IMG/VR virus record: IMGVR_UViG_3300029448_000035
Coordinates: 1 to 59,204 of that record
Reading direction: 5' to 3' (one strand)
DNA from: a virus
Taxonomy: Duplodnaviria > Caudoviricetes
Length of the DNA stretch: 59,204 bases
Shown here: one piece after another, positions 2,446 through 43,427 of the stretch
Position numbering within the stretch: position 1 is the stretch's first letter
Layout: each line of letters starts with the position of its first letter
The notes under the pieces: model-generated
What the model was told of the DNA's origin: nothing
The model's database searches: none
What the model saw: the letters and a program-made list of their open reading frames with translations, nothing else
Position numbers and translations under genes: made by a program

Positions 2446-2452
2446 TAATAAC

Positions 2453-2460: not shown

Positions 2461-2464
2461 CCTC

Positions 2465-8719: not shown

Positions 8720-8894
8720 GTATAAGTGTGAATGCGGAAAAACCGCAGATATAACAGGTAGTGTAACGATCAAAGCGATTGACGGAGAGGTACGCCATGA
8801 CGTAAAGTGTGATTGCGGAAAGTACATGACTCTTGTCGAAAAGCGTAAAGGCATGCCGTCTTTTAAAAGCAACCGTTATGGACAAGTCCGATGA
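8712..8894 (+). CDS. small zinc-ribbon protein
   Basis: CECG...CDCG. Confidence 0.7.
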   Translation: MSKYKCECGKTADITGSVTIKAIDGEVRHDVKCDCGKYMTLVEKRKGMPSFKSNRYGQVR

Positions 8895-11003: not shown

Positions 11004-13465
11004 CCGTTAGATGTACGGTAAGCAAGGAAAGAATACTGTAGGCTTTCCGAATCCGCTGGCAAACAAGGCGGAGAAGGAGGGCAAGGAGTACGGTCTGTCA
11101 TACGCGAAGGCCATTTCCTCGCAGTGGGGCGCCGTGGAGCGCGACAACTCTCTGTATAAAAAGAGGTCCAGGACCTTTGAAAGAAACAGAGCTTACGCTA
11201 ACGGAACGCAAGACACGAGCATCTATAGGCAGTTGTTGAACAGCCTCGACCCGTCGAACAATGACGGAAGCTTCTTGAACCTTGACTTTACCCCTGTGCC
11301 GATCCTCCCCAAGTTTGTCAGGATCGTGGTAAACAAGATACTATCAAGTGATCCGTATCCGAACTTAGAAGCCGTCGACCCCCTCTCAGCCTCTGAAAAA
11401 GACGCAGAAAGGAGAAAGGTAAAGATGCTAGTCCAGAACAAGGACAAGATCTCCCAGATTAAAGATAAGATTGGGGTTGACTTAGCTCAGGGTCAGGATA
11501 TACCTGAAACCCTTGAGGAGGCTGAGATCTTCCTGGAGACCAATATAAAGTCTGCATCAGAGGTTGCGGCTCAGGTAGCTACCAACATGACCTTGAAGTG
11601 GAATGACTTCAACGACTCTACTTACAGGAGGTGTGTCAACGATATCGCCACCCTGGGTATGGCGGTCACTAAGAGAAGCAATGACCCGAACTACGGTATT
11701 AAGGTTGACTACGTAGACCCCAAAAATTTTGTTCACAGCTATACTGAGGACCCTAATTTCGGCGATATCGTCTATGCTGGTCATGTCAAGAGAATCTCTT
11801 TGCAAGAACTTCGTAGGGTTGCTGGTGATCAGTTTACTGACGAAGAGTATGAGAAGATTGCCAAGACCGTAGCTAAGAGGTATCAGTACGATACCACATC
11901 GATGCGGGCCTACTTGAACGATAGTAAAGGAAGAAATGAGTACGATCAGTATATGGTCGACGTTTTGGACTTTGAGTTTCTCTCTGTGGACACGATGGTC
12001 TTCGAAGAGAAGCAGAGCAAGTACGGAAACGTTGGCTTCTATCAGAAAGGAGAAAACTACAAGGCGCCAACCAATTCTGTATACAAGAGGTCTGTAACTA
12101 AAATGCCGAACGTAGCTGTCTACGGAGGCTCATACATAATGGGCTGTGACAAGCTCTTCAGCTACGGTGTAAAAAAGAACGTACCTAAGAACGTTCATGA
12201 CCTTAGTCGCACTAACCTATCTTATTCTGTCGTTGCTACTAATCTTGACGGAAACATTCCGAAATCCATGGTAGACAGCTGCATTGGTTTTGCAGACCAG
12301 TTGCAGCTTACACACCTGAAGATTCAGCAGGCAATAGCAAAAGCAAAGCCCGATGGCATCATCATTGATATCGAGGGTTTGGAGAACGTTCAGCTCGGAA
12401 AAGGGGGTGAGCTCCAACCTCTCGAACTGCACGACATCTACGAACAAACGGGTGTCTTCTACTACCGCAGCAAAAATCCCGAAGGCGGTTTCCAGAACCC
12501 TCCCATCAGGGAAATCGGTAACAACATACGGAACATCAACGAGTTCATCAACCTCTACAATCACTACCTGAGGCTGATTAGGGATGCCACGGGAATCAAC
12601 GAGGCTATGGATGCCTCTACCCCGAAGGGAGATCAACTTGTGGGTGTTAGGCAGCAGGCTATCGCGGCTGGAAACAACGCCATCTACGACATCACGAACT
12701 CGTCTATGGTTCTCTTTAAGAAGGTTTGCTCTGACATTGTAAAGTGCCTTCAGGTTATACCCAGGGGAAGTATTCTGTACAGGGCGTATGAGAACGCCAT
12801 AGGCAAGGAGAACGTGTCTATGCTTAACACCTTCTCTGACCTCCCGATGTACAACTTCGGAGTTACGGTCGTTAAGGAGATGGAGGAGATTGAAAAGCAG
12901 TACCTCGAACAAAATATACAGGCGTCTCTGGCTCAGAAAGAATTAGACATCGAAGACGCCATAGCGATCAGGCAGCTCAAGGATGTAAATCAGGCCGAGC
13001 GCCTTTTGATCGTAAGAAGAAAAAAGCGGATTTCCAGGAATCAGCAGATGGCCCAGCAAAACGTTCAAGCTCAGTCACAGGCACAGATTCAGTCTGCTCA
13101 GGCGGCGTCACAGGCTAAGCAGCAAGAGATGCAGATGCAGGCTCAGATCGACGCTCAGGCTATGCAGTTGAAAGCTCAGCTTGAGTCCCAGCTTGAAGTC
13201 CTTCGTCATCAGCACAAAAAAGAGATTGAAACTATGAAGGCTCAGGCTACTCTTGGATTCAAGACCGACGACCAGGAGTTCAGAGAGAAGCTGGAGGTTT
13301 TCAAGGAAGACCGAAAGGATATGCGGGTTGGTAAGCAGACCGCAGATCAAAGTAAACTGATTTCACAGAGACAAGGAACAAGAGGAGAAGTAGGAGAGCC
13401 TCAGCCCATTCAGCAGCAAGAAGGGCCGATGACTCCCGACCAAATAATACAGCAAGCAATACAAA

Positions 13466-19158
<5,693 letters not shown>

Positions 19159-19162
<4 letters not shown>

Positions 19163-24984: not shown

Positions 24985-25784
24985 TGGCAAAGAATTACGT
25001 AAAAGTTTCCGAGGTCATAAATGACTTCCTAATCACGCAAGACCACGACGACTACGCTGGCAGTGTCCCAGAGACGTCCATCAGGGCGCATGCCCTCAGG
25101 GGTGTAAGGGAGATGGGGTTTGACATGCTGCAAGTGGTGAGGTCCCTCAAGCTGTCTGTGAATGCCACTTCCGATTCTGTTGAACTGCCATGCGACTATG
25201 TGGACTGGACTAAGGTCGGGGTTGTCGGCAATGACGGGTTGGTCTACGTCCTGGGACACAATAAGAACATCAACTACTCTCAGAAGATGAAGGAGTGCGG
25301 TGAGTGCGAGGACAGAGAGGATTCCAAGACTGGCACGGCTGGGTTTTCTTCCGTTGGTGGTGATGGCATCAAAAGCGGATTTGACTCTCATATCTTCAGG
25401 AACTTCGTCTACCAGAACAACGAAGGTAGACTTTACGGCGTTGGTGGTGGGACTCTTTACGGGGAGTTTAGGATCAACTTAGATCAGAACAGAATCGAGC
25501 TCTCGGTAAACTCCGACATTACGGAGATTGTGCTAGAGTACATTGCTGATGAGGCCAGAGCAGAAGACCCCAGCGTTCACCTGTATGGAGAGCAGGCTCT
25601 CAGAAGTTACATATACTACAGAGCTATCGAAAGAAAGTCCTCTGTCCCAGCCAATGAAAAGGCCAGGGCCAGACAAGAGTACTACAACGAGCTCCGCAAG
25701 GCTAACGCTCGGATGAAATCCTTCACTAAGGAGGAGTTGCTCAAGACGATTAGAAAGAACTCCAAGCAATCACCTAAGCTCTAA
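24984..25784 (+). CDS. tail ring / tubular protein
   Basis: VELPCDYVDWTKVG, IVLEYIAD; coupled to neighbours. Confidence 0.7.
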   Translation: MAKNYVKVSEVINDFLITQDHDDYAGSVPETSIRAHALRGVREMGFDMLQVVRSLKLSVNATSDSVELPCDYVDWTKVGVVGNDGLVYVLGHNKNINYSQKMKECGECEDREDSKTGTAGFSSVGGDGIKSGFDSHIFRNFVYQNNEGRLYGVGGGTLYGEFRINLDQNRIELSVNSDITEIVLEYIADEARAEDPSVHLYGEQALRSYIYYRAIERKSSVPANEKARARQEYYNELRKANARMKSFTKEELLKTIRKNSKQSPKL

Positions 25785-28700
25785 TGATTGACAAGTTTGT
25801 ACCTAGGCATCTTAATACAGACAGCGATCAGAGATACCTTGAAGAAGGTGACCTTGTAGACGCCGTCAACATTACATTAAATGAAGACGGCGCTAACAGC
25901 GCTATTGTTTTAAAGAACATAAGAGGGACTAGGTCATACACGTATGCCAACTATAACGATAGGGTTCCTGACTACCCTATGACCGTAATTGGATCTGTGT
26001 CTGACCCTCAAAGAAGCAGGGTGTATGTGTTTGCTGCTTCAGACACAGATAACGCGGATTATGACGACATCATATTCATGATCGACATGAATACGGATCA
26101 GTACAGCGTGGTCTTTAGAACTGCCTCAAGCGAGAACACGATTGGAGGTCTTAGGTTTGATCCCAACTCCTTCATAAAAGCTGACGTTCTAAACAGGGAT
26201 GTTCAAAGAAACGGCACCATCCAGTCTATACTTTACTTTACGGACAACGTAAACCTTCCCAGGAAGATAAACGTAGACAGAGCTTTGGCTGGAGAGTATG
26301 AACAATACACTGCAGATCAGTTGAGGTTTGTGATTAACTCTATTGTTCCTGCACCAACGAGAGAGCCTATCTTTACGTTTGAGACAGACACTAGCGTGAC
26401 AGACAATAACCTTCTAGGAAGGTGCTTTCAGTTTGCCACTCAGTTTGTCTTTAATGACGGCGAAGAGTCGGCGATATCACCTTATTCAAAACTGGCTTTT
26501 GTTGACGAGTCTCGAACGTCTGCTGTTGTATTTGATGCGAACTCACCAAACGAGCCTGCTATATTCTCTTCCCTCAGGGAGGAAAATAATGTGTGCGTTA
26601 TAGATACCAAGTTTGCGACTGGATTTGATCCCGACCTTGTTCTAAATGAAAGCGTAGAAACACCAGATGTAGAGAACATCAGAATACTCGCTAGAGAGGA
26701 TAATGATGGGGCCTGGTTTGTTGTAGATGAGGTGCCAGTCAATGAAACAACTACAAGAAATATAGCGGGAACAAGCGTTGCTGTGTTTAACCCGCAGTCT
26801 GGCCTGTACAGGTTCTACAATGACGCTGGGTATAGGACCGTATCGAGCTTGCAATCCGACAAGCTTTACGACAACGTTCCTAGAATAGCCAGGGGTCAGG
26901 CCATATCAGGAAACAGGCTGGCCTACTCAAACTACATAGAGGGATATAACAACGCTGCGACACTTCCATCCATAACTATAACTCCAGAATACATAGGCCC
27001 TGAAACCGCTGACGGGAACGGGGGAATAGACACATCTAACTTGGTTACGTTTGTAACTACAGGTGATGCTAATGTAGATGACGGGTCAATAAAGGTTGAC
27101 TGGACAGCTTTGTTCACCTCCGCATCGGACCAAACGTATGCGCTGGAAGAAGGGTCTCAGACCGTCCTTTCTTTTTCTTGGACACCTAGGGGTACGGTTC
27201 AAAATAATACAACCGCAAGTGACGATGAGGTTTTGATGCAGTTTGAGGGAACAGACTCGGATGGAAACAACGTGAGGTTTGGTGTCGGTTCTCCTGATCA
27301 AACAGATAACAGTATATTTATAGGCCCAGCTATTGACGCCAACGTCGAGGACAGCAACAGGTGGTTTGTCAACTACCAGTACGTTGCCGAAGAAGGAGAC
27401 ACGATACAGGATTTGGCCGATGACTTTGCCGTGTATATAGAGAACCTAACATGGCTTAATAGATTTGATTACCCATTGCCTGGACTCAATGTTGGTCAGA
27501 TCACTTCAGGTCAAGATATTCACCCTTCAAACAAAACGGGAGATACATCCACTATAGCCCCAACCAGCAGGAGCTTTGGTCAAGTTAAAATGAGGCAATC
27601 ATGGAAGTTTGTAACAGAGTCGACTGGAGGTGTTTCATACATACACCCCCACATATTTTATGCGGCTATTGAAGAAAATCCGCCAGACGAGGGTCAAATA
27701 TTTACTACATACGGAGGTGTAAATCCAGGTTTTGACCCTGGATCAAATCCAGGATCAAACTTCTGGAATCTTTCTTTTCAGAGAGAAAATTTTGGGACTG
27801 GGCAAGGCGCAGAAACATACGACTTTAGCGGTGCGGTCGGCAATAGCGGAACCGATGTAGGAAACATTGCAGCTGCATCTGAAGCAGCATCTACTCAGCT
27901 TTCTTTTAAGGCGGGGGCTCTTCATGAGTTCGGGATGATGTACTACGACAGGTGGAACAGAAACGGACCCCTGATCAAGCTCGGAAGCGTATATGCAAAA
28001 ACCATAGCTGAAAGGTCTGCTACAGGCCCTACAGCCCCAGTAGAGAGAAAGGGTGCCATCCATATGAATTTTAACATCAATGGCGATGTGGCCACCATCC
28101 CAGACTGGGCTAGAGGTTACCGAATTCTATACGCGGGGAACCCCTATGACTCGGTCTTTACTGGAACCGTATCCAATGCGTTTGTCCCAACTGATGCAGC
28201 AGAGCAGGGCGCTACAGGGGCTTCGGCCTCAACGTTTGATCCAGATAGAAGAGAGATATACGTATCAATAGAGGGGATAGAAAAGACCAAGCAGTTCATG
28301 TCTGTCAACAGGTCTTACAGCTTTGCTGAAGGAGACGTTCTCAGAGTCGTTCAATACTTTAAGGCGCTGAGTCCTAATCAAGGAGTTAACGCGCCTCTGT
28401 CCTCCACAAACACGCTAATTGAGTTTGACGTAGTTAGAACCGTTACTCTTGAGGACGACCTAAACAACCCCCTTAGGTCTGGAACGTACAGCTTCGGGGA
28501 TTTGACTGACGCTGGAAAGACGGGCAGGTTCCTTGTGCTGAGAGCCCCAGAGGTTGACGCTGGTGTTCAGAACTCAAACGGAGACTACACTAAGTACCCA
28601 GGATTTGACTGGTTTCATGTCGCAGCATCTCAGAATGGAAGCGTGACAGCTGACAACAGATACCCCTACGACTCAGACAGTGACGGCACAAACGACGAGC

Positions 28701-30403
28701 CAGACACAACGAACTTCTGGAAGCAAGAGTGCGTAGTCGAAATACTAAGTAGGAGAAAAAGAACGTCAGACGACATCTATTACGAAATATCTCCTTACAG
28801 GGGGCTCAGGATAAGAAGAGGTGGAGGATCAAACGTTTATGGCCCTGCTTTTACTGTAGACAACGGGGACATGTTCTTTAGACCAGTTTTGTCTACCCGA
28901 AACCTTTTTGAAAACAGCGCCTGGACTGACGACCCTAAAAAGTGGCAATACAAATCCATTGTCATGGAGTCTGAGAGGTATTCCGACAGAAGAACCAAAG
29001 CGGATTGGGGGCAAGGCAGGGCCCACTTGCCGCTTACAGAGCCTCAAGAAAGAAGGAGGTACAATAGCATCACATACAGTGAGGCCGATGTATCTGACCT
29101 AAACACTTTGTTATTGTCTTCGTTCGATAAAAACCTGTCTAACTTCGTTGACTTAAACCCCAACTTCGGCGCACTGAACTACATCGGGGCTATGGGGGAA
29201 CAGCTTATAGGCGTACAGGAAAACAAGGTTTCACGGCTTTCTGTAGACCGACAGGTCATACAGTCCGCACAGGGTGATGACGTAGCCTTGGCTCTTACCT
29301 CATCCCCTTACAACGTAGACATCTACTTCTCTGGGGACTATGGATGTGGAGATAACCCTGAGTCCGTGCTCATACAGGACAATCAGGTGTTCTTTGCTGA
29401 CGTGTCCAGGTCTGCTGTATGCAGGCTTGCATCGAGCCAGCTATACGCTATATCTGAGAAAAGGACATCGAACCTGTTCAACACGATATTTGACAACGTT
29501 CGAGCTGCTGCGAACCCAAGAATTGTTTCTGGGTACGACCCCGCCAACGACACGTATTACATAACGTTTGGAAATATGGGGGGCAACAACGAAACCGTGG
29601 GCTACAATGTCTTTGGTGGCCGTGGCGGTGACGGAGGGTGGATCAGCAGATATACTTTCTACCCAACGAATTACAGCAACCAAAACAACTCGATGCTGTC
29701 CATGTCTTACTACGACCCCGACAATACGTTGGAGTACGACCAGCAGCTCATGCACGTTCATGATGGCAACGCCTACAACACGTTCTATGGGGACTACGAT
29801 CAGTCTGACATTACATACGTGTCTAAGCCTGACCCCAGTATGGTCAAGACGTATGACGCTCTTTCTCACGAAGGCAACTCAGGCAACTGGGTTGTGCAGT
29901 CAATAAACACCAACCTCATGGGTGCTAACGACAACGCGGGGACGCTGAACTTTGTAGAGCGGGAGGGTAGTTACTATGCGTACATAACGAGGGATCCTGG
30001 GGGCAGCAAGCACTTGCGGTTCCTTGGTACGATTGCATCGTCTACCACGAACAGCATCACCTTTGACAACAAAATAAATAACCAGCCAGTTCCAGCAAAC
30101 GCGGAGATGATGGCTGTTGTGGGCGGCAATCTTGTTACTATGTCTACGACAGCTGGAGAGGCCCTCGTTCAGTCTGTTACTGGAGCTAGAACTCTGGGAA
30201 CTTTGACCGCAAACATAGATACAGCGGTGGCGACAGACGGCACTCAGGTCGTCCTTAGAACGCCCGCCGCGCTGGATAGCGATCCGATCCGAGGTCACTA
30301 CGCCACGATTAGAATGACAAACAACGCAACGGCTCAGTTTGAGCTATACTGCGTAAACACAGTACTTACCCCGTCCCAGTTGCACCACAATAGAGGACAA
30401 TAA
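25784..30403 (+). CDS. tail nozzle / stabilisation protein (P22 gp10-like role)
   Basis: 1539 aa, beta-propeller-like; LYFTDNVNLPRKIN, ARGQAISGNRLAYSNYIEG, EREG.YY. Confidence 0.75.
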   Translation: MIDKFVPRHLNTDSDQRYLEEGDLVDAVNITLNEDGANSAIVLKNIRGTRSYTYANYNDRVPDYPMTVIGSVSDPQRSRVYVFAASDTDNADYDDIIFMIDMNTDQYSVVFRTASSENTIGGLRFDPNSFIKADVLNRDVQRNGTIQSILYFTDNVNLPRKINVDRALAGEYEQYTADQLRFVINSIVPAPTREPIFTFETDTSVTDNNLLGRCFQFATQFVFNDGEESAISPYSKLAFVDESRTSAVVFDANSPNEPAIFSSLREENNVCVIDTKFATGFDPDLVLNESVETPDVENIRILAREDNDGAWFVVDEVPVNETTTRNIAGTSVAVFNPQSGLYRFYNDAGYRTVSSLQSDKLYDNVPRIARGQAISGNRLAYSNYIEGYNNAATLPSITITPEYIGPETADGNGGIDTSNLVTFVTTGDANVDDGSIKVDWTALFTSASDQTYALEEGSQTVLSFSWTPRGTVQNNTTASDDEVLMQFEGTDSDGNNVRFGVGSPDQTDNSIFIGPAIDANVEDSNRWFVNYQYVAEEGDTIQDLADDFAVYIENLTWLNRFDYPLPGLNVGQITSGQDIHPSNKTGDTSTIAPTSRSFGQVKMRQSWKFVTESTGGVSYIHPHIFYAAIEENPPDEGQIFTTYGGVNPGFDPGSNPGSNFWNLSFQRENFGTGQGAETYDFSGAVGNSGTDVGNIAAASEAASTQLSFKAGALHEFGMMYYDRWNRNGPLIKLGSVYAKTIAERSATGPTAPVERKGAIHMNFNINGDVATIPDWARGYRILYAGNPYDSVFTGTVSNAFVPTDAAEQGATGASASTFDPDRREIYVSIEGIEKTKQFMSVNRSYSFAEGDVLRVVQYFKALSPNQGVNAPLSSTNTLIEFDVVRTVTLEDDLNNPLRSGTYSFGDLTDAGKTGRFLVLRAPEVDAGVQNSNGDYTKYPGFDWFHVAASQNGSVTADNRYPYDSDSDGTNDEPDTTNFWKQECVVEILSRRKRTSDDIYYEISPYRGLRIRRGGGSNVYGPAFTVDNGDMFFRPVLSTRNLFENSAWTDDPKKWQYKSIVMESERYSDRRTKADWGQGRAHLPLTEPQERRRYNSITYSEADVSDLNTLLLSSFDKNLSNFVDLNPNFGALNYIGAMGEQLIGVQENKVSRLSVDRQVIQSAQGDDVALALTSSPYNVDIYFSGDYGCGDNPESVLIQDNQVFFADVSRSAVCRLASSQLYAISEKRTSNLFNTIFDNVRAAANPRIVSGYDPANDTYYITFGNMGGNNETVGYNVFGGRGGDGGWISRYTFYPTNYSNQNNSMLSMSYYDPDNTLEYDQQLMHVHDGNAYNTFYGDYDQSDITYVSKPDPSMVKTYDALSHEGNSGNWVVQSINTNLMGANDNAGTLNFVEREGSYYAYITRDPGGSKHLRFLGTIASSTTNSITFDNKINNQPVPANAEMMAVVGGNLVTMSTTAGEALVQSVTGARTLGTLTANIDTAVATDGTQVVLRTPAALDSDPIRGHYATIRMTNNATAQFELYCVNTVLTPSQLHHNRGQ

Positions 30404-33436: not shown

Positions 33437-36400
33437 ATGGACGAAAAGTACTTTAAAGTAGTAGACAAGATGGTTAGTCAGGGAAAATCCTCTGACTACA
33501 TTCTTCAGGTATTGAACATGCAGCAGGCTGGGGTTTCCGAGGGAGACCTCGCCGCGTACATGGAACTAAAAAAAAAAGATTCAGGGTCGGGCGGACAAGG
33601 TTCAACACCTGGACCTTCTACTGGATCCAGTTCGGTAGACGGAAATTCGGAATCTACTCTGGGGTTTTCTGAAGCCTTTCAGCTCTCTGGAGAGCAGGGG
33701 GTTAGGATGAACGAGGTGGTTCAGGAAAAAATAGAAGACGACCCCACTGGACCAAGCATTACTCCAGACGACCCCAGATTTGACGAAGCCAAAGAGAGGG
33801 CAGAAGAAGCAAAGAGGTCGGGGTCTCTAAACAGGACTACAGAAGAAAGGACTGGGCTTGATTACGAATCCTACTTTGAAGAAAGAAATCTAGAAGAAAA
33901 TGTCGTACTCAATGACATTTGGAACTGGACTGAGTCTAAGCTTAACGAGGTCATGCCTGAGACCTTCGATAAGCTTGTTAACAGCGGAGACCTTCAGCAA
34001 GAGGTCGCTAGAATAAAAGATAGGCCTGACCTTCAGATTGGACAAACCTTTATAGACTACGGAGAGGCGGACATGATTCGAGAGCCTGGTGCTCCGTTTC
34101 TTGTCCCCGACTCGGCCAATGCGCCTCAATTCTATGTAGATGCGGATTTTAGGGCGGACAAGGTTTCTGAACTAAGAAACTATTGGGTTCAGGAAAAAGC
34201 AAATCAGTTTCTCCAAACGGAGTTTAAGGATCAGGTAAAGGATTACGTAAAAGAAAAGCACCCCGATCTTTCAGAAGACGCCCTTGAAGCTCTTACTGAC
34301 AAGATGTACTATGACTTCGGCATCGATGTCGACCTCGACGACGACAACAAGATTAACGAACAACCATGGGTACAGGACTTCGTGAATAGCGCTGGATCGT
34401 CCACAAGAGACTTGTTTGTTGGGGCGGTTCAGCTTGTTGCTGGAGGCATTAACGAAGTCGCCAATATAAACGACAGGACAAGAGCAGCCAGAAACGCAAG
34501 ATTGATATCTGAGGCTGGGAATTTTGGACCAAGAAACACTACTGTGTTTACGGGTGACAAAGAAGGCATGCTTACCGCCTTTGGAAACGGAAACTACGGT
34601 GCAGGATTTTGGCAGCTTGGAACTGGTATCGGTGAGGTTATACCTCAGACTGCTGCTATCGTAGGGTCTACAATGGCTGGAATGCCCAACGTTGGACTTG
34701 GTCTTGTAGTTGCCGCTGGGGGTGGGGGCGCTTACGCTCAAGCCGCTCTTGATCCCAACTCAACAGGTTTTTCTAGACTCGCTTACGCGGGTAGCGCGAT
34801 GGGCATAGAGTTCGTTGGGGGTAGAATTCTGCAAGGAATCACTAAGGGTAGCTCCAAGTGGATGCTAGAGAACATATCAAGGCTTGAGAGAAGAGGGCTT
34901 AGCAGGCAGGTGCTTAACAGTGGAAGAAGGTCCTGGCTCCACCCTCAGGCTGTCAGGGGTGTGTCTAACGCAAGTCAGCTTAGGGGTAGTTCTTCTTGGT
35001 TTGCTCATTCTCGCGCACTACTAGATACATGGAAGGCAACCTCCATGAGGCTTGGAATGGGGTCTTCTACAGAGGCGGCAGAAGAGGGTATTGCTTATGC
35101 TTTTGACGAGTTGGTTTCAAAGCCCCTGATACTGGGGCAGGAGTCAGACTTCAACCTGATCGATCTGTTTGAGCAAAGTATTCTCGGAGGATTTGGAGGT
35201 GCCATGGCTGTAGGTGGGGGTTTCGCTCACGGAAACTCTGTGGCTGGAGCAAGAAGCAGGGCCAACGCCAACGCTTTAGACATAAGAAATCTGGAGAGAA
35301 GGGCTGATGAGCTTGAGGTTAAGGCTCAAGAGGCTATCAACGAAGCAGAGAAAAGGGGGTATCAGCGGATGGCCGACAGCAATAGACTGAGGGCTCATCG
35401 CATGACCGAGGCAAATGCTAGGTTCTACGACATGCTTCAACTGAGACACCCTCAGTTGTTTGAGGCCGTTCAGAAGTTGGATCAGGAGATCAATGCCATG
35501 TCCAACATGATTGATCAAAACCAGACTCCAGACACAAACGTAGACCTTGAGTCTGAACTCAACAAGGCTGTTCAGGAGAGACAAAAGCTGGTGAACAGCG
35601 TAGCCTCTGAGACCGTCACCCTGACCGATCAGGAAAACGAAACAAAGTTTGATGCCGCTGCAGAGGCACAGATGAGTCAGCTTGACTTGGATGTCGCTCA
35701 GGTTGAGGCCGCAGCAGACGACATGATGAGTAGGATGCAGCGAGGAGAAACTACTTCTGACGCTGTTGATCAAGCATTTAAAGTTGCAGAGCAGGCAAGG
35801 CAGAAGAGGTCTGAGGTCAAGGCTCTTATCGAACAGCACAACGAAATAAAGGAGCAGCTGAAGCAAGAGGACGTAGATCCAGAGGTTGCTGCGGACCTTC
35901 AAAATCAGCAAGAAGACATTAGGCAGGAGCTTTCTCAAAAGACTGGGGTTGCGGCGGAGGCCTTTGGGTCTGTGTCAGAAGCAGAGACTCAGATCGAAGG
36001 GGAGGCACGACTTACTCAAGAGTGGTTGGACGGAACCATACAGGGCCTAGAGAACTCCTCCCTTTCTTCCGATAGGGTTAGAGAGATACTCGATGGGGAG
36101 GGTGACTTCGCCATGCTTACTGCGGAGAACCCCAACGCAAAAACTGTAAGTGAGGGCAAGAACATTCAGTTCAACAGGATGGCTCTGAGGTGGCTTGTAA
36201 GCAGAGGGTACGAAGGGAAGATTCATCGTATCGTAGGTAAGTACGATGCGGGGGAGAACAGCTTCCTTGTGGAGGATATGACCATTGAGGATTCTATTGA
36301 GTTCGCCAAGAAGTTTGGTCAAGAGAGCGTAGCTCACAGGACGGGTCTTGTGCAGGCTGACGGCTCCATCAACCTGTTCGAGGGTAAGCCCGTATATCAC

Positions 36401-39400
36401 GAGACCAACCCAGACAACTTCTTCTCGGTCATCAAAGACACTGAAGGGAACCAGACCTCGTTCTCGTTTATTCCTTCTGACCAGTACATGGATGCTGACG
36501 GCAACACCATTACTGGAGAGGAGTACACCGAAAGGTCCAAGCAAAACGCTAGGGACTTTTCTGACATCGAGGCTGCCATTCAGGAGAATCCAGTGCAGGA
36601 AGAAGGGCAGACTGAGCAAAAGGAGGGTGTAAATGCGGCTGAAGATGGATACGTCACGGTTCGCACAAACTCAGATGGATCCTCTGCTGTAGTTGCGGGA
36701 CAAAACGGAGTCGAGACTGCGGCTGAAGCCAAGGCTATAAACAACCTCACCAAACTGGTCAAGGCTCTGTTCGGGGACAATGTGGAAGTTAGGATCTACC
36801 AGAGTCAAGATGCGGCAGACGCTGTCGAGGCTGGCTCTTGGGGTGGCCTATTCACAAAGTCAGACGGTAAGAGGGTGATACACATAAACCCTCAGGCGAT
36901 TAGAGATAACGCAAGGCTGGAAGGTGAGCAGTTCAGAGGAGCCCTTAGGGAGAAATCCTTTAAGGAAACTCTCCAAGAGGAGGTTATGCACTCCGTCATA
37001 GGTGCAAGCCTATTTAACCTCTACATGAAGTCCCCCAGGCTGGCCTCCAGGATGGAGAGCCTAGTCATGAAGCTTGCCGAAAAGGAGAACCTTGATGATG
37101 GAAGCCTTGGACTGAGAGAGAGAGTTGAGTCGAAGAAAGCTCAGTATGGGAGAGGAGCAATTACTCAGAAACAAAAGGCGGAGGTATTTGAAGAGACTGT
37201 CATTGAGTTTCTCTCTGCGTACGCGGCTAACCCAGACAGGTTCCAATTCTCTCAAGTAGACAAGTTCAGGATTGCACTGAACAAGATGCTTGTCGACCTG
37301 TACGGAGCTATGGGTAAGACGTTCCAGATTGATAGCGTCGATACCCTCTTGGAAATTGGAAAGAAGTTCTCTGCAGCTCAAGAAAGAGGTGAGACCTTTA
37401 GGTTCGATGTCGAGGAAGCTGGGGATCAGAGAGCGTCAGAAAGAATATCCCCCACCCGAATCCCGACGAACGAGAACGGCAAGATTACTGTCAAGATGAA
37501 GGAGACGTTCTATAGGTACGACATAGGATTCAAGAAGGACATTGGTAGTGAAGAGATCACTAGGGAGTTTAACGATGTATGGCACTTCATAAACTGGTGG
37601 AAGAAGTCCACCAAAATGGGTGAGGATCAACACTTCTTTTCATTCGAAACCACAGACGGAACCCCAATCGACGTCGAAAGAATCAAAAACTACAAGTCTA
37701 GAAGAAGTGATCGAATAACGTCTGTTGAGTCATCAAAGCAAATTAACAGCATGATCTCCGATGCTGTGTCTCAGAAGATCATATCCCCTGTGGTTGCCGC
37801 TAGGATTCGCAACAAGATAAAAAGGACTCTTAACAAGATGTCCGTTATGGAAAGAAACAACAGGGTTAACTCTGACAGATATAAGAGGGAGGTTGCGCTC
37901 GTAAGAAGATTTGAGGAAAATACTGAGCAGCTAATACAGAAAGAAGCGAGAGCAAAAGGAAAAGAGTTTATTAGGGGCGGAATGGATGACGTGTCCAGAG
38001 CCTCTCACTACCTAAGGCTTGACCTAATGGGTCGGCTTGGCGCTGATGAGTACATGACCCGCAGGGCCAAGATAAAAGACTCTATACAGAGCTTGACTGG
38101 AATCAATCTGAACAGAGTAAAGAATAAGCTTGAGGAGGAAATACTTATTCGTCAGGCAATCATGAACATGCCTGAACACGTTCCCCCTGGCTACTCTGCT
38201 GGTGAGTTTGGGAGGTACAATGACTTAGAGTCCGTTAATGCCTCTTCTAAATTGGCTGACCTTGCCATGTACTACACGGGAGAAAGGTCTTCGGAGGTAA
38301 TAAAAGAAGTTTTTGAAGGAGAGAACCCGATTAAGTTTTTTGAAAACTACCATGAGGCAGCGACTACTAGAGTAAAAGAACTGATTGAAAGTGGCCGCCT
38401 TGACGGCACTGTTCAGGATAACATGATGAGACTTCACTTCATCATGGCATTTACTTCTGCTCAAAATAGGGCCAACCCGAATGTAGAGGTTGCCATGCAA
38501 ATCCTTGAACTGGCGAACAAAGACAAGGGTAGAAGAGGGGCGCACCTGATTCTGCCTCAGGCTATGATCGACTCCATGAAAAAGAGGGGGACGTTTCCTG
38601 GATTTGACAAAAAGAACTTGATTCCAGGTCACACTCTCTTAGGTGCCAGAAACTCGTTCGACAAGCTTAACGCTCTGATACAGGGGGACTTGAGTGCGTA
38701 TAGCAACAAGCAGATACCAGCAACCGTAAAAGACGCTCTCGTTAGAGCAACTGGAACCAGAGGAAACTTTATTGATGACAACGGAAACGTTATGTGGGAT
38801 TCCGTTATGAAGTTTCTTTTGTCTCCTTACGAGGGCTCTAGAGTTAGAAAAACTGGAACTGTAATGGCTCAGGAGTTGTTCTCTGCGAAGCTGGGTGCGT
38901 GGGCGCTTAACCTATCTCAGTACAGCATGCCCGATCTAAGTGTCGCGGATACAAAGCTTTCAGACGTCCTCACTATAGACAGTCACGTCATGAGAACTAT
39001 GTCCATGCTGTTGGGGAGTAATTACGGATTGGACATTGAAATGCAGATTGAAGCCAACATAGAAAAGCTGGCTGGATGGCTTGTTGAAAACCTGCCCACT
39101 CAAGGTGAATTCGGAAAGAGAAGAAGGTCTTTGAAGAGCAATATGTCTTCATATGGTAGGATATACACCACCTTTCCTGTTTCTGACATTGCGAAAAGAA
39201 CAGGTGTTGCTGCCATAGACATTGCTAGAGACTATTTGTCTACGATCTCAGACGCAGACACAGCAACAAAGCTTGAGGGCTTGCTTTCTGAAGCCATTAA
39301 CCCAACTACAAAGTTCTATGCAGACGATCTTACGAGAACTAGGCAGTTGGTTACAGCTGTTTCCGATGGCGAAATGACACCATCTCAGTTTGGTCAGCTC

Positions 39401-42400
39401 TTGTTTGCAGATAGTCAGGTTTCCACGGCAGAGATACTGAAGGGTAAGGCTCTAACCAGCAAGTACGAGACATATGCGTCCGCTATAAAGGCTTTGCCAA
39501 AAGACGAGGTCAGAGCATCTTCAAGGCTTACTCGACCCCTTTCAAACGGAGACGCTACTGAGTCTCCACTATACAGGCAGAGAACCCTTGATGAGGCTTC
39601 GAAAGTGCGCCCCAACCTCACTATTGATGACGAGGCCGTAATGGAGGCCTTGAGTACAGACGCAACCTCAAGGAGAATCATGGCTAAGGATTCTCAAATA
39701 TCTGAAGGTCAGAAGGTTGGTGTTAGGCTCAACCTCAACGTAATGAAGAACACAGGGGTTCCCGTTCAGACCATGCATGACAAGACCGCATCGGGGGAGG
39801 CGCTTAGGTACGCTGCTGCCGTTACGGTGAAGAACCCTACACTGTATGTCAACCAGAACGCAAGGAGAAAGATCCTTACCTTCCAGGAAAACAAGTTCCC
39901 GATGGCTAGTGTCAACGGGGAGTTCCTCACTGACAAGTTGAATCAAACAGATTTCAACGGTGTGAAAGCATTCTTCAATCCCTTTAAGCACAACGTGTTT
40001 GTAGACGCTTCTGGAAGACCGATTAAGTCTGCTGATGAGGCTACGATTATAGGTAGCGTAGTCTACCTCAGGGGAAACATTGAGTACTACGACTTCAACG
40101 ACCCTATTCTTTTTGAAGGTAGGACTGAGACGGAAGCTCAGAAAGAGAAGAGAACCAAGAGAGGCCCCAAGTATGACAGGGCGCTCAAGCGGTTCGCTGC
40201 ATACTCTAGTAGAATGGGGGTAGAGTTCACCAATCAGGAGGACTTGATGGAGGCATACGACAACATGCCTATCGCCTCTCAAGTTGCGATGAGCGAAAGC
40301 GAAGTCGTAGACAACATGGAGGAGGCTCAGAAGAGGGCAAGCGTCAGGCTCAGGCTTAGGCAGACGGCTGGTCGTGCATCTAGAACGTACCAAGGTGAGA
40401 CCAGAAAAACCATCCTCAACAATCCAAACAACTACTTTACACCTCAGGTCCTCAAGCAGCTCAAGCAACAGCTGGGGAACAAGACAGATGCGGAGCTGAT
40501 CGACATCATGACTGATGACGGTCTTGGTAGGCTGTCTCAGCGCAACGACGACTTGGGTGTTTTGGCTGCAGCAGAGATGATCAACAGGGCTGTTGCGAAT
40601 GGTGACATGGACGCTATACCAGACCTCATCGAGGAGGCAGCTGCCATGGGTACTACAGCTGGTAGGATACTGCGACACCTCAGGGAACTCAGGGGAAGCA
40701 CACCCAGGGGGATTGAGATGGTCATCCTGAAGGAGGTTGAAAGAAGAGGCAACTCCCTGTCGGACGAACAGAAGTCCAGACTCCAAAAGATGGCGGCTGA
40801 GATATTCAGGCTGGGAGCAGAGCACGAGGAGCTCATGAAGCGAGCTATCGCTGGAGAGGATTTAGAGGCTGAGCTGAAAGCTAAGACAAAAGAATACAAA
40901 GAGGCTGAGAAAAATCTAGAGACATTCGCTAACGCAGTGATCGAAAGAGGTTGGGGGCAGATCGGAGGATTGCTGATACAGGGTAATCTTCTTACTCCTA
41001 TGTCTCAGATAACCAACGTGGGGGCGAACATGGTCAACGCATTGGGCAAGGTAGCGGTGGACGCATTGGCTCTCCCGATAGAAAGGCTAGTCAATGTCCT
41101 TGGCATAGACTCCCCGATGAAAAGAAACTACTCTATCAACGCCTACATACATGGTATGAGAAGGTTTGGGGTGGGATTCATGGAGGCTATAGACCAAATT
41201 AAAACTGGTCAGGAGGCTGATGTAACGGAGTGGAGAATGGCTAGGGGCTTTGCTCCATTCAGGTCGCTTATGTCCGCTATGGGTAAAGGAGACTTGCCGC
41301 TTGGTCCTGATGGTAAGGTTTCTCTGAACACTCGCGCTAAGCTGTTTGTTCAGGGTACTCTCGGTATTCCTGCTGAGATCATGTTCCGATTCCTGTCTCT
41401 CGGTGACACTCCATTTAGGAGGTATGTCGAGGGCATTGAGCTGTATCAAATAGGTAGGAATCAGGGTCTTGAGGGTGAGGCACTGAAGAACTTCTTGAAG
41501 TTTCCGACCAAGCAGGCCATGGAGATGGCAGAGGCGGAAGGAAAGAAGCTCACCTACCAAGAGGAGACCATTGCATCGAGGACGGCAGATGACTTTGTGA
41601 AATTTGTGGAGAGGATGACGGCTAGATTCTTCGATTGGATTCCAGGGACCGATGGTAACGCTATAGCTAGATTCTTGATTAGGTCTAACATTCCTTACAG
41701 AAGGACCCCAGCAAACATCTTGTACGACACCCTGACGTTCGCTACACCCTATGTGGCTATCCCAAGAATGATGTCAGAGCTTAGAAATGGTGACGCTCGT
41801 AGCGCATCACAAACCTTGGCTAAGTCCATGATCGGCGGAATGGCTACGCAGGTTACGCTAATGATGATCAGGGAAGGTCTCATATCTGGTGCCATCGAAT
41901 GGAATGAGGATGAGGAGAGAAACATGGCTTACGACCAGTTCCCCCCGAACAGCATCAACATAAGCGCCCTTAACAGGTGGATCAACGGAGAGTCTACAGC
42001 TAAACAGGAGGACGACTACTTCATCTCCTACATGAAGCTCGGAATCATAGGCACCGTGATGGGAAGTGTTGTGAAGGGTGTAGACAGAGGGGAGTTGAAG
42101 AAGAGAGACTACAGTGGAGACAAGTGGGCGTCTCATGTTGTGCAAGACGCATTCGGAATACAGGCGTTTAGTTCCATCGCCCACATGATGGATCAGAGCT
42201 TTGTTCAAGGAATGAACAACTTCATACAAGTGATCTCTACTGGAGACGAAAGGACTTGGGAGAACTGGCTGGGCACTACGTTCCAAGCTATGTCTGCAAC
42301 GGTCCTTCCGAACACCATGACTGCTTTCTACAGGGCAGAGAGGGATTACCTTCCTGACAGCAGGATAACAAAAGACATGGGATTTGCAGAGAGGATCCTG

Positions 42401-42994
42401 AAGAAGTTTGAGTACACGATTAAGTCCAGAACGTTTGGCCTCGGCGAACTGCCCATCAGGAGAAACTGGAAGGGAGAAAAGATCGAGCAAACACCGAGAG
42501 GCACAAACGGTATAGCTTACCAGCTGTTCGACATCACCAAGGCTAGACAAGGTGAAGCTGATGCAGTGTCCAACGAAATCTGGAGGCTGTACGAGCAGAC
42601 AGAGGACCTGACACAGGCGTGTGGAACCCCTGGGTACGCGCAGAAGAGAAAGATCAACGTGCCTAACATAAGAAAGAAGCATCTCAAGATGCTTGAAGAA
42701 GAGGGTCTGGAGTATACGTGGGTAAACGACGAGGAGTTCATGGCTGATGCGCTGTACCTAAACACCAATGACCTCAACAGACTGATGGAGGCTTCAGGTA
42801 AGGAGAGGTACATGGAGATAGAAAAATTGATGGCTACGGAGGAGTACAACGCAATGGATGACTTCGAGAAGGTTGAAGCTCTCAACGATCTAAACGGAGG
42901 GTTCAACGGTGCCGTCGAGATAAACAACGGGCAGTTTAGGAATCACACCACGGTCCTGTTCGATATCATGCAAGAGAAGTATGAGCAGAGATAA
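33437..42994 (+). CDS. giant polyvalent internal virion protein (3185 aa)
   Basis: Gly-rich hydrophobic helices, coiled coil, DUF3293-like, zincin-like and HhH-glycosylase-like segments, helical C-terminus. Confidence 0.8.
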   Translation: MDEKYFKVVDKMVSQGKSSDYILQVLNMQQAGVSEGDLAAYMELKKKDSGSGGQGSTPGPSTGSSSVDGNSESTLGFSEAFQLSGEQGVRMNEVVQEKIEDDPTGPSITPDDPRFDEAKERAEEAKRSGSLNRTTEERTGLDYESYFEERNLEENVVLNDIWNWTESKLNEVMPETFDKLVNSGDLQQEVARIKDRPDLQIGQTFIDYGEADMIREPGAPFLVPDSANAPQFYVDADFRADKVSELRNYWVQEKANQFLQTEFKDQVKDYVKEKHPDLSEDALEALTDKMYYDFGIDVDLDDDNKINEQPWVQDFVNSAGSSTRDLFVGAVQLVAGGINEVANINDRTRAARNARLISEAGNFGPRNTTVFTGDKEGMLTAFGNGNYGAGFWQLGTGIGEVIPQTAAIVGSTMAGMPNVGLGLVVAAGGGGAYAQAALDPNSTGFSRLAYAGSAMGIEFVGGRILQGITKGSSKWMLENISRLERRGLSRQVLNSGRRSWLHPQAVRGVSNASQLRGSSSWFAHSRALLDTWKATSMRLGMGSSTEAAEEGIAYAFDELVSKPLILGQESDFNLIDLFEQSILGGFGGAMAVGGGFAHGNSVAGARSRANANALDIRNLERRADELEVKAQEAINEAEKRGYQRMADSNRLRAHRMTEANARFYDMLQLRHPQLFEAVQKLDQEINAMSNMIDQNQTPDTNVDLESELNKAVQERQKLVNSVASETVTLTDQENETKFDAAAEAQMSQLDLDVAQVEAAADDMMSRMQRGETTSDAVDQAFKVAEQARQKRSEVKALIEQHNEIKEQLKQEDVDPEVAADLQNQQEDIRQELSQKTGVAAEAFGSVSEAETQIEGEARLTQEWLDGTIQGLENSSLSSDRVREILDGEGDFAMLTAENPNAKTVSEGKNIQFNRMALRWLVSRGYEGKIHRIVGKYDAGENSFLVEDMTIEDSIEFAKKFGQESVAHRTGLVQADGSINLFEGKPVYHETNPDNFFSVIKDTEGNQTSFSFIPSDQYMDADGNTITGEEYTERSKQNARDFSDIEAAIQENPVQEEGQTEQKEGVNAAEDGYVTVRTNSDGSSAVVAGQNGVETAAEAKAINNLTKLVKALFGDNVEVRIYQSQDAADAVEAGSWGGLFTKSDGKRVIHINPQAIRDNARLEGEQFRGALREKSFKETLQEEVMHSVIGASLFNLYMKSPRLASRMESLVMKLAEKENLDDGSLGLRERVESKKAQYGRGAITQKQKAEVFEETVIEFLSAYAANPDRFQFSQVDKFRIALNKMLVDLYGAMGKTFQIDSVDTLLEIGKKFSAAQERGETFRFDVEEAGDQRASERISPTRIPTNENGKITVKMKETFYRYDIGFKKDIGSEEITREFNDVWHFINWWKKSTKMGEDQHFFSFETTDGTPIDVERIKNYKSRRSDRITSVESSKQINSMISDAVSQKIISPVVAARIRNKIKRTLNKMSVMERNNRVNSDRYKREVALVRRFEENTEQLIQKEARAKGKEFIRGGMDDVSRASHYLRLDLMGRLGADEYMTRRAKIKDSIQSLTGINLNRVKNKLEEEILIRQAIMNMPEHVPPGYSAGEFGRYNDLESVNASSKLADLAMYYTGERSSEVIKEVFEGENPIKFFENYHEAATTRVKELIESGRLDGTVQDNMMRLHFIMAFTSAQNRANPNVEVAMQILELANKDKGRRGAHLILPQAMIDSMKKRGTFPGFDKKNLIPGHTLLGARNSFDKLNALIQGDLSAYSNKQIPATVKDALVRATGTRGNFIDDNGNVMWDSVMKFLLSPYEGSRVRKTGTVMAQELFSAKLGAWALNLSQYSMPDLSVADTKLSDVLTIDSHVMRTMSMLLGSNYGLDIEMQIEANIEKLAGWLVENLPTQGEFGKRRRSLKSNMSSYGRIYTTFPVSDIAKRTGVAAIDIARDYLSTISDADTATKLEGLLSEAINPTTKFYADDLTRTRQLVTAVSDGEMTPSQFGQLLFADSQVSTAEILKGKALTSKYETYASAIKALPKDEVRASSRLTRPLSNGDATESPLYRQRTLDEASKVRPNLTIDDEAVMEALSTDATSRRIMAKDSQISEGQKVGVRLNLNVMKNTGVPVQTMHDKTASGEALRYAAAVTVKNPTLYVNQNARRKILTFQENKFPMASVNGEFLTDKLNQTDFNGVKAFFNPFKHNVFVDASGRPIKSADEATIIGSVVYLRGNIEYYDFNDPILFEGRTETEAQKEKRTKRGPKYDRALKRFAAYSSRMGVEFTNQEDLMEAYDNMPIASQVAMSESEVVDNMEEAQKRASVRLRLRQTAGRASRTYQGETRKTILNNPNNYFTPQVLKQLKQQLGNKTDAELIDIMTDDGLGRLSQRNDDLGVLAAAEMINRAVANGDMDAIPDLIEEAAAMGTTAGRILRHLRELRGSTPRGIEMVILKEVERRGNSLSDEQKSRLQKMAAEIFRLGAEHEELMKRAIAGEDLEAELKAKTKEYKEAEKNLETFANAVIERGWGQIGGLLIQGNLLTPMSQITNVGANMVNALGKVAVDALALPIERLVNVLGIDSPMKRNYSINAYIHGMRRFGVGFMEAIDQIKTGQEADVTEWRMARGFAPFRSLMSAMGKGDLPLGPDGKVSLNTRAKLFVQGTLGIPAEIMFRFLSLGDTPFRRYVEGIELYQIGRNQGLEGEALKNFLKFPTKQAMEMAEAEGKKLTYQEETIASRTADDFVKFVERMTARFFDWIPGTDGNAIARFLIRSNIPYRRTPANILYDTLTFATPYVAIPRMMSELRNGDARSASQTLAKSMIGGMATQVTLMMIREGLISGAIEWNEDEERNMAYDQFPPNSINISALNRWINGESTAKQEDDYFISYMKLGIIGTVMGSVVKGVDRGELKKRDYSGDKWASHVVQDAFGIQAFSSIAHMMDQSFVQGMNNFIQVISTGDERTWENWLGTTFQAMSATVLPNTMTAFYRAERDYLPDSRITKDMGFAERILKKFEYTIKSRTFGLGELPIRRNWKGEKIEQTPRGTNGIAYQLFDITKARQGEADAVSNEIWRLYEQTEDLTQACGTPGYAQKRKINVPNIRKKHLKMLEEEGLEYTWVNDEEFMADALYLNTNDLNRLMEASGKERYMEIEKLMATEEYNAMDDFEKVEALNDLNGGFNGAVEINNGQFRNHTTVLFDIMQEKYEQR

Positions 42995-43427
42995 AAAATT
43001 CAAGGACACCAAGGTTGGGAAGTGGGTGGCTGAAAAGCTTCCCGATGTGGCGGACACTCTCGGAGGCGTGCTTCCTGATCAGGGCGTACTCGGTATCGTC
43101 AAGCGAGTGGTCGCGGGTGACCCTGGATTATCGGCAGAGGACAAGATGGAGTTTGAAAGACTGGCCGCTGAAGAAGAGATGAACGCACAAGAGCAAGTGA
43201 CTAGAAGATGGGAGGCGGATGCAAAGGGTGACGTCAAGCTTGCTAAGTATATAAGGCCTGTCACGTTGATTACGCTGACTTTGTTCTTCATGATTATCAT
43301 GGTGTGGGATGGCCTTGATGTGACATTCATGCCCCCAGAGAACTACATAAACCTACTTGAAATTCTGATGCTTACCGTCTTCGGGGCGTATTTCGCGGGT
43401 AGGACGATAGAAAAGGTTAGAAAGTGA
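42981..43427 (+). CDS. holin (3TM, GTA-release type)
   Basis: VTRRWEAD...AKYIRP plus two TM helices and YFAGRTIEK. Confidence 0.75.
   Translation: MSRDKKFKDTKVGKWVAEKLPDVADTLGGVLPDQGVLGIVKRVVAGDPGLSAEDKMEFERLAAEEEMNAQEQVTRRWEADAKGDVKLAKYIRPVTLITLTLFFMIIMVWDGLDVTFMPPENYINLLEILMLTVFGAYFAGRTIEKVRK

Follow-up and report, generated by a model that had tools for sequence, protein, structure and literature searches.

A giant phage protein with an EExxH zincin-like domain and candidate cutting sites at its module junctions

In phages, giant polypeptides composed of many modules have been described as polyvalent proteins, and the zincin-like metallopeptidase (MPTase) domains present in them have been proposed to process the very chains that carry them (Iyer et al., 2017; PMC5512222). 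Cutting by such built-in zincins has been proposed since 2017, so far with no known cut sites; in its main text that paper does not employ the term 'linker' at all, and 'cleavage site' occurs in its reference list only. Here we describe a protein of comparable build, encoded by a single open reading frame (ORF) of an uncultured marine podovirus-like phage of about 59 kb; the window analysed is the whole of its IMG/VR virus record, IMGVR_UViG_3300029448_000035 (59,204 bases, rated 93% complete). This protein combines a zincin-like domain, in which Glu takes the place of the first metal-binding His throughout the family, with a short R-A-S peptide recurring at the five module junctions downstream of that domain. 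We suggest, as a reading that is plausible though somewhat short of probable, that it is a polyvalent virion protein cut by its own variant metallopeptidase at linkers of the form acidic-R-A-S-x-x-L; the term polyvalent is part of this joint proposal and no firmer than it.

The likeness to the polyvalent proteins of Iyer et al. lies in the giant multi-module layout, the zincin-like domain and the proposed self-cutting. It extends to the neighbours of the domain in BFVD, the best of which are the Elemovirus structural protein (E 2.3e-3, probability 1.0) and large phage proteins that bear the names polyvalent, ART-PolyVal, lethal factor or IrrE; one sister protein with a canonical HExxH carries ART-PolyVal itself (PF18760, 48.6 bits). 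In contrast to those proteins, the domain described here has no match to PF18818, shows Glu at the position of the first His and is accompanied by a defined junction peptide, while the modules of the chain match no known effector family.

The nearest cultured relatives of the phage are Flavobacterium Elemovirus and Cellulophaga phages. Judged by the terminase (40% identity), the Elemovirus podoviruses come closest, and their genomes of about 60 kb show the same order of terminase, portal, virion proteins, a 1493-aa (amino acid) protein and a giant gene. The latter encodes gp18, labelled 'structural protein' (NC_055853.1, 48718-59802, i.e. L001:38719-49803; 3694 aa), which shares with our protein a DUF3293 module (33% identity over 232 aa, the sole BLAST match) and the zincin-like domain (30.5 bits). 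It differs in having a canonical HEIFH and no R-A-S at all, and its remaining parts, those corresponding to the gp82-like module and the C-terminus included, show no similarity. A literature search for Elemovirus returned nothing on gp18 by title or abstract.

Consensus cut sites are familiar from picornavirus 3C, from T4 gp21 (L/I-x-E) and from phiKZ-type phages (S/A/G-x-E). Viral polyproteins and head-protease substrates of this sort share with the present protein one short consensus peptide per joint and a protease encoded in the same system; here, by contrast, the candidate protease is a variant zincin that forms part of the very chain it would cut, and the cut sites are themselves candidates. 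A further comparison is offered by the T7-type internal virion protein D family, N4 gp50 included, with which the giant gene shares its place as the last and largest gene before the holin, as T7 gp16. This family is described as hosting passenger domains bound for the cytoplasm, and joined hidden Markov models (HMMs) were needed for its detection (Hardies et al., 2016; PMC4819975). Using hhalign, a 64-row profile of our family against the single T7 gp16 sequence gave a probability of 1.2%, which leaves gene position as the likeness to that family. Unlike N4 gp50, the protein lacks the D-x-D-G-D motif of RNA polymerase, and since no polymerase family was matched either, a virion RNA polymerase of the crAss-like or N4 type is ruled out.

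Junction peptides and module borders

The sequence-only reading had drawn attention to the region 36780-40351, which lies inside a single ORF (Table 1). All the motifs that it had listed stand at their coordinates in this ORF, whose product comprises about ten modules as delineated by HMMs, AlphaFold2 (AF2) models and alignment. The pieces between the motifs, given as about 85, 95, 500 and 270 aa, measure 84, 93, 499 and 268 aa; the first three are termed M1, M2 and M3 hereafter, and the fourth is the module resembling Phage_L5_gp82. A sixth R-A-S at aa 2313 had been overlooked, as had two R-R-S, at aa 497 (34925-34933) and aa 1896 (39122-39136). The second of these (KRRRSLKS) stands in an M3 loop missing from about half of the relatives and could be a lineage-specific extra site.

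A search with aa 1100-2320 against 5.8 billion proteins returned 96 matches, nearly all of 2960-3320 aa and none annotated. The MAFFT alignment comprises P0001-P0096 (96 rows), P0001 being the window's protein; the distant P0097 was left out. It is colinear, with every module at nearly the same size in every relative save for two exceptions, namely a DUF3293 module cut down in three rows and an M3 that is shorter in one clade. The motifs recur in the same columns at all five sites: R, A and S are present in 55, 60 and 62 rows at site 1, in 56, 72 and 70 at site 3, in 47, 61 and 74 at site 4 and in 84, 94 and 81 at site 5, while at site 2, with its variable middle position, R is found in 69 rows and S in 59. 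Exact R-A-S is seen at sites 1 to 5 in 27, 14, 43, 42 and 69 rows. When 295 distinct site peptides are pooled, a Leu, Ile or Val stands three residues after the Ser in 251 of them and the residues before the Arg are rich in Glu and Asp; the motif is roughly [DE]-x-x-R-A-S-x-x-[LIV]. A lineage at about 30% identity (L002, a 3087-aa ORF from IMG/VR) shows RAS-x-R-L at four junctions. The codons differ among the five sites, which argues that the peptide is under selection and rules out a repeat at the level of DNA.

Elsewhere in the window the motif is scarce: only three R-A-S occur in the 75 other crude ORFs, none of them in the terminase, portal, fibre, capsid-like or muzzle-like proteins. A general head-protease site is ruled out by this absence from the other structural ORFs. 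Compared with 20,000 shuffles of the protein, R-A-S (five occurrences against a mean of 1.25; p 0.009) and R-A-S-x-R (three against 0.084; reached in 0/20,000) are both in excess in the real sequence, the two patterns having been chosen after the fact. At the level of the family, conserved R-A-S recurs four times, next to EAL with six and EEA with five recurrences; the number of recurrences is unexceptional, and it is the setting of R-A-S that is remarkable. Among the 42 conserved tripeptide positions in surroundings rich in insertions and deletions (indels), R-A-S alone is seen more than once, and its three sites there (1, 4 and 3) bear the top indel loads of the protein (20.1, 19.7 and 13.7). 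Indel peaks stand beside sites 1, 3 and 4, with the heaviest indels flanking site 4. A literature search at the level of titles and abstracts found no prior description of junction motifs in polyvalent proteins.

Sites 1-3 are covered by an AF2 model of aa 1070-1530 built from a 26-row alignment (predicted local distance difference test, pLDDT, 78.9). Exactly three segments of this model fall below a pLDDT of 50, namely aa 1324-1334, 1421-1426 and 1516-1530, and each holds one motif, the last, as the end of the model, being the weaker evidence. The folded pieces between these linkers are an alpha/beta-plus-helical domain, M1 and M2. Across a survey set of 110 proteins of at least 1000 aa, scanned with HMMs of the ten modules, 215 of the 299 exact R-A-S fall in junction gaps that make up 16,819 of 314,993 residues (5.3%), a count that is partly circular because the module borders were drawn from R-A-S positions. 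By junction, R-A-S is found in 35 of 102 cases between the EExxH domain and M1, 15 of 81 between M1 and M2, 41 of 83 between M2 and M3, 48 of 104 between M3 and the gp82-like module, and 74 of 107 between the latter and the C-terminal part; upstream of the EExxH domain it is found in none of 325 junctions. The low-pLDDT segments at sites 1-3, the indel loads and this survey together support the view that the R-A-S motifs delimit modules, and in the model and alignment they appear as conserved islands within low-confidence, indel-rich linkers. In the model, predicted domain borders coincide with the motif positions at sites 1 and 2 and, less surely, at site 3; site 5 has conserved, gap-free flanks.

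In the survey set 65 proteins show the full module order, 18 have no detectable M2 and five lack DUF3293, the rest being fragments. Fifteen shorter matches were considered as natural gene splits at the motif and rejected as such, given their arbitrary starts and ends and several out-of-frame-looking tails; most look like broken gene calls, and only P0101 (1678 aa) and P0114 (1758 aa) are informative. These two, from different contigs and 99.8% identical, have the order N1-N2-CC, 186 unmatched residues, EExxH domain, gp82-like module and C-terminus. A single R-A-S stands at the joint of the EExxH domain and the gp82-like module; its upstream side aligns with site 1 and its downstream side with site 4. 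The roughly 690 aa of M1-M3 are therefore missing, and the motif marks the breakpoint at either end. Their 186 unmatched residues occupy the usual place of DUF3293, and their site 5 reads R-A-Y rather than R-A-S. Of the earlier idea of swappable modules, this leaves the part that concerns loss exactly at the motif; free swapping finds no support, given the identical order of 65 of the 110 relatives, and the modules are mostly not swappable, most relatives being colinear. That the Elemovirus protein shares just two modules argues for a turnover of cassettes, if a slow one.

The EExxH domain

The zincin-like domain contains the strands GGLF (aa 1136, nt 36842) and IHIN, the latter within IHINP (aa 1148, nt 36878), followed by EEVMH on the predicted active-site helix. 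E1181, E1182, H1185 and E1253 are each present in 95 of the 96 rows, the single gap being a fragment without the domain; Y1237 is present in 94 and K1233 in 91. The canonical H-E-x-x-H is thus absent, E-E-x-x-H being found in all 95 members with the domain, while the catalytic Glu and the second His are kept. Where the first His would stand could be identified from the sister proteins, which align with HEIFH and TVAHExxHA there: an HMM built from aa 1070-1325 matches aa 1466-1664 of Elemovirus gp18, laying EEvlH on HEIFH with the IHIN strand and the later Glu kept, and also matches all seven of the metagenomic relatives of the Elemovirus domain (20.0-46.0 bits), every one of which reads TVAHExxHA. 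The canonical HExxH domain of gp18 and of P0122-P0128 lies outside every Pfam model. A phmmer search with the domain against 1.84 billion representatives gave 18 matches at E <= 0.001, which, where checked, are large proteins or fragments with the module content of this family; the HExxH sisters were not reached. To judge from these matches, the EExxH domain is confined to this protein family.

The domain was also folded alone, because the fold search with the 461-residue three-domain model had been swamped by rows of three-helix bundles owed to M2. The AF2 model of aa 1050-1335 (pLDDT 81.3; predicted template-modelling score, pTM, 0.78) has an order of secondary structures that fits a zincin, with Tyr1237 and Glu1253 on helices later than that of the motif (E1253 on helix 195-215 of the model). 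In the wide VIA search of 48,161 chains the top three rows are zincin-fold hydrolases of the YbeY family (Z 6.2, 6.0 and 5.4), the best being YbeY 1xm5 (Z 6.2, root mean square deviation, rmsd, 3.7, 119 aa), with 3e11, lethal factor and HtpX among the lower rows (Z 4.4-4.6). In a second look at the best 1000 of Foldseek, lethal factor, PPEP-1/Zmp1, Ste24, MATCAP, ERAP1 and DPP III make up most rows; the catalytic domain of lethal factor (4pkv) scores Z 5.4 (rmsd 5.0, 156 aa) and PPEP-1/Zmp1 Z 4.0-4.3 over 136-148 aa (6r56: Z 4.3, 144 aa). Lethal factor, PPEP-1 (Zmp1) and YbeY share with the model a motif helix followed by Tyr and Glu on later helices; they differ from it in an identity of 8-14%, in the absence of any match to PDB sequences and in the first ligand, which is Glu here.

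Taken together, the invariant residues, the profile homology to HExxH domains and the zincin-rich fold neighbours point to a zincin-like domain of phage polyvalent proteins that the Pfam model does not reach and in which the first His has invariably given way to Glu. The proposal, made from the letters alone, that EExxH marks a zincin-like active-site helix with Glu for the first His agrees with these three lines of evidence, and its premise that polyvalent MPTases have been proposed as processors is in print (main text of PMC5512222). A language-model lead to LPD23 (PF18838), resting on one cluster with 18% LPD23 carriers, was rejected, there being no match in the window at E <= 10; LPD23 is not mentioned in the main text of PMC5512222.

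Self-processing and its alternatives

In the proposed mechanism the region of aa ~1070-1325 would act as a zincin-like metallopeptidase with an E-E-x-x-H ... Tyr ... Glu site in which the first metal-binding residue is always Glu. The exchange of His for Glu probably shifts the preferred metal without killing the site. An analogy, and no more than that, is offered by the ZIP8 and ZIP14 transporters, where EEXXH in place of HEXXH is described as going with Mn transport and altered metal selectivity (PMC10457451); a literature search for EExxH returned ZIP transporters only. All five joints downstream of the domain carry acidic-x-R-[A]-S-x-x-[LIV] in what appear to be flexible, variable linkers, and the domain would cut its own chain at these peptides, either in cis or between copies. 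The scissile bond may be the one preceding the conserved Leu/Ile, many zincins having a preference for a hydrophobic P1' residue. Six products would result: an N-terminal carrier with the protease (~1330 aa), M1 (~85 aa), M2 (~93 aa), M3 (~500 aa), the L5-gp82-like module (~270 aa) and the conserved C-terminal piece (~880 aa). The peptidase activity, the cutting at the motif, the packaging and the time of cutting, whether in the head or after ejection, are the parts of this scheme that we infer. With regard to packaging and ejection, the gene position, the 'structural protein' label of the Elemovirus counterpart and the internal-virion-protein framework of Hardies et al. suggest that the giant protein is probably packaged in the virion.

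Self-processing appears to explain most of the observations because a catalytic-type site is kept in every member bearing the domain, because one peptide marks each of the joints that follow that site and none of those that precede it, because the phage's other structural proteins are free of the motif, and because no other protease, a prohead protease included, was recognised among the 20 other ORFs of the window that were scanned. Several observations weigh against it. With regard to the domain, PF18818 (MPTase-PolyVal; mark 27.5 bits) gives no hit anywhere in the window, E-values up to 10 included, and scanning the protein, ten segments of it and 16 relatives with Pfam returned no peptidase family. 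The fold matches are weak, all with Z below 8, a range in which only a common arrangement may be shared, and the best Foldseek E-value against the PDB is 0.053. The loss of the first His might mean another metal, another chemistry (the top fold rows being the RNase YbeY) or binding only. With regard to the motif, exact R-A-S is missing at many junctions (occupancy 14 to 69 of 96), and P0116 and P0097 have none at all, P0116 keeping R-K-S or R-R-S at three junctions. A multiplicity of at least four was reached in 657 of 2000 shuffles, which shows that recurrence by itself is not rare, and the circularity of the junction count has been mentioned above. Site 5 may lie within a folded helix. AF2 docked none of the three linkers into the cleft in cis; a complex prediction in which the domain (aa 1070-1325) was paired with Zn and the site-4 peptide (aa 2008-2047) scored 0.02 against a mark of 0.32 and speaks neither for nor against binding. 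Finally, the HExxH sister proteins are without R-A-S, which argues that the link between protease and motif is not a general one.

The strongest alternative, which we regard as rather less likely than self-processing, is that the protein stays whole like N4 gp50 and that R-A-S serves for docking, be it to the portal, the capsid interior or a chaperone, or as a hinge or threading signal. The giant virion RNA polymerase of N4 is described as packaged uncut despite its MPTase domain (PMC5512222), and the virion proteins of phiRIO-1 are reported to show no proteolytic processing (PMC4819975); both precedents count against cutting. Conserved islands in disordered linkers are as typical of docking motifs as of cut sites, and the best conserved copy, that at site 5, falls in a conserved stretch free of gaps. 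However, the motif is restricted to the part of the chain that follows the protease-like domain, where it marks every joint, and such a pattern is more readily reconciled with a cutting code than with a single docking site; the invariant catalytic-type site is part of the same chain, and no docking partner is known.

An unlikely alternative is that the linkers are cut by another protease, of phage maturation or of the host, with the EExxH domain being an effector aimed at host proteins. Host-directed roles are also considered for such peptidases by Iyer et al. (PMC5512222), no function is assigned to many of the window's ORFs, and the BFVD neighbours of the domain include proteins named capsid maturation protease and MuF-like. 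Yet the scan of the 20 other ORFs returned no protease family, the capsid-like, portal and other structural proteins, which are usual targets of head proteases too, are devoid of the motif, and within the giant protein it is confined to the part C-terminal to the EExxH domain.

Slightly less likely again is that the EExxH domain is no peptidase, being rather a YbeY-like nuclease or a metal-binding pseudo-enzyme to which R-A-S is unrelated. The YbeY endoribonucleases in the top fold rows, the loss of the first His in all 95 members, the lack of a match to any curated peptidase model and the altered metal selectivity of the ZIP8/ZIP14 analogues would all be in keeping with this. On the other hand, the sister domains keep the full HExxH plus Glu peptidase signature, and the alignments to lethal factor and PPEP-1 (136-156 aa) are longer than those to YbeY (119-123 aa). 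Moreover, E1182 as the catalytic Glu, Tyr1237 and Glu1253 are all retained, presumably as in gluzincins of the lethal-factor type. A historical trace without present signal, i.e. the descendants of one duplicated linker or old recombination joints of cassettes, is very improbable, for although one lineage's deletion or insertion has both its ends at R-A-S sites and chance alone can make a conserved tripeptide recur, the sites use different codons and the motif is kept at ~30% identity despite diverged, indel-rich flanks, which needs purifying selection on the peptide.

Candidate sites at five positions, named to the residue, stand beside a candidate protease with three invariant residues. The protein, if polyvalent, couples an EExxH zincin variant to a candidate cutting code at residue level. 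A more far-reaching version, which we hold to be doubtful, is that the invariant exchange of His for Glu defines a new branch of phage zincins using a harder metal (Mn or Fe rather than Zn) and cutting a packaged protein of 350 kDa into six pieces via acidic-R-A-S-x-x-L. No earlier polyvalent phage protein would then have had its protease and cut sites pinned down residue by residue and, given that the HExxH sisters have no R-A-S, a junction peptide peculiar to each branch of these proteases, evolved together with it, would be hinted at. Self-processing, if correct, would annotate about a sixth of each such marine phage genome, and the invariant EExxH is a natural experiment on metal choice in a zincin site.

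Modules and gene context

Table 1. Coordinates of the giant ORF, its parts and the neighbouring genes in the window
Feature	Residues (aa)	Position (nt)	Strand	Remarks
Giant ORF (P0001)	1-3185	33437-42994	+	3185 aa; within late structural block
N-terminal part	1-880	33437-36076	+	poorly conserved; without R-A-S junction motifs
DUF3293 module (PF11697)	894-965	36116-36331	+	Pfam 29.6 and 32.9 bits, mark 25
Zincin-like domain	1070-1325	36644-37411	+	AF2, profile match, fold rows
E-E-V-M-H	1181-1185	36977-36991	+	aligns to H-E-x-x-H of sister proteins
Glu1253, candidate third metal ligand	1253	37193-37195	+	95/96 rows; aligns to Glu in Elemovirus gp18
Junction 1, RASERI	1332	37430-37447	+	consensus [ED]x-R-A-S-x-[RK]-V-S-P
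Module M1	1338-1421	37448-37699	+	small alpha/beta, beta-rich domain (AF2)
Junction 2, RRSDRI	1422	37700-37717	+	family keeps R-x-S
Module M2	1428-1520	37718-37996	+	three-helix bundle (AF2)
Junction 3, RASHYL	1521	37997-38014	+	
Module M3	1527-2025	38015-39511	+	formerly read as 'glycosylase-like'
Junction 4, RASSRL	2026	39512-39529	+	consensus [ED]-x-R-A-S-(x)-Q-L-x-F-P
Phage_L5_gp82-like module	2032-2299	39530-40333	+	PF25735 at aa 2088-2209, E 2.8e-10
Junction 5, RASVRL	2300	40334-40351	+	best conserved copy; then R-x-T-A-G-[RK]
Conserved C-terminal 880 aa		40352-42991	+	kept in most distant relative
Large terminase		8833-10989	+	
Portal		11011-13500	+	
Two long collagen-repeat fibre genes		13818-19162	+	PF01391, 167 and 51 bits; between portal and capsid-like genes
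1539-aa protein, crAss muzzle C-terminal domain		25784-30403	+	PF25729, 38.2 bits
Holin		42981-43427	+	

The Pfam scans identified two families in the giant protein, DUF3293 and Phage_L5_gp82. The latter match scores 40.6 bits with the whole protein and 45.3 bits with the segment (mark 27) and is shared by 15 of the 16 relatives scanned. Conservation is highest in the gp82-like module, with column identities of up to 0.99, and in the C-terminal 880 aa: aa 2032-3185 (39530-42991) contain many invariant columns, e.g. GNLLTP..SQ..N and GDTPFRRY, and both parts are kept in P0097, the most distant relative (34% identity over 1133 aa). To judge from this conservation, it must be here that the protein's core function resides. 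DUF3293, in contrast, was matched in eight of the 16 relatives and is missing or shortened in some members of the family. A further match of this module is to a hypothetical protein encoded by Myxococcus phage Mx1 (30.5% identity, E 2e-5), and a literature search for the term DUF3293 found no prior description.

In the N-terminal part, Gly-rich and moderately hydrophobic segments are seen at aa 326-430 (34412-34726) and aa 574-600 (35156-35236), with Kyte-Doolittle values of 1.2-1.5 over 19 residues, and further Gly-rich hydrophobic stretches occur in the C-terminal part at aa 2539, 2637, 2793 and 2861; these may be membrane-active segments of an ejection protein. A stretch at aa 620-880 is coiled-coil-like, the 64-row profile returning only rows of coiled-coil type from the PDB (E >= 0.06). 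PDB sequence searches with the protein or the profile gave nothing else of relevance, the best row, again of coiled-coil type, having E 0.063.

Of the pieces between the junctions, M1 has four invariant residues (F1378, F1384, N1386 and W1388), and a fold search with M2 yields generic helical-bundle rows only. M3 has no Pfam or PDB sequence match, whether with the protein, its segments, the profile or the 16 relatives. Its columns conserved at 90% or more (aa 1527-2022) are S1674, N1682, A1686, G1722, G1820, D1848 and Q1987, with no Glu among them; the description of this piece as glycosylase-like therefore finds no support in any search, and a glycosylase or lytic transglycosylase was rejected for want of both a family match and such a conserved Glu. 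A language-model lead to DUF7178 (26 of 30 matches, score 0.94, recognition at 1609 only) was dropped too, the HMM in the window being unsupportive. None of the modules matched a known effector family in the Pfam scans of the protein, the segments and the 16 relatives.

The family is common in viromes from the sea, has no cultured member and amounts to about 100 clusters of ~3000-aa proteins, those from Tara samples included; tblastn with aa 1002-3185 against 50,697 phage records gave no match. The terminase, by comparison, matches 93 records, with 68 of Flavobacterium and 15 of Cellulophaga among them. A K-G-G leader found elsewhere in the window shows no tie to the giant protein beyond one FIRGG.

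The genes of the window follow the order terminase, portal and fibres, with the capsid-like and other virion protein genes, likewise on the plus strand, 3' of the fibre genes. The giant ORF is the last and largest gene of the block for tail and internal proteins, preceded by the crAss-muzzle-like gene and then two unassigned ORFs, and is followed directly by the holin. After the holin, replication genes on the minus strand encode a ribonucleotide reductase, a primase/helicase and an exonuclease. The presence of a crAss muzzle domain in a genome of 59 kb constitutes a structural link between these marine podoviruses and crAss-like phages.

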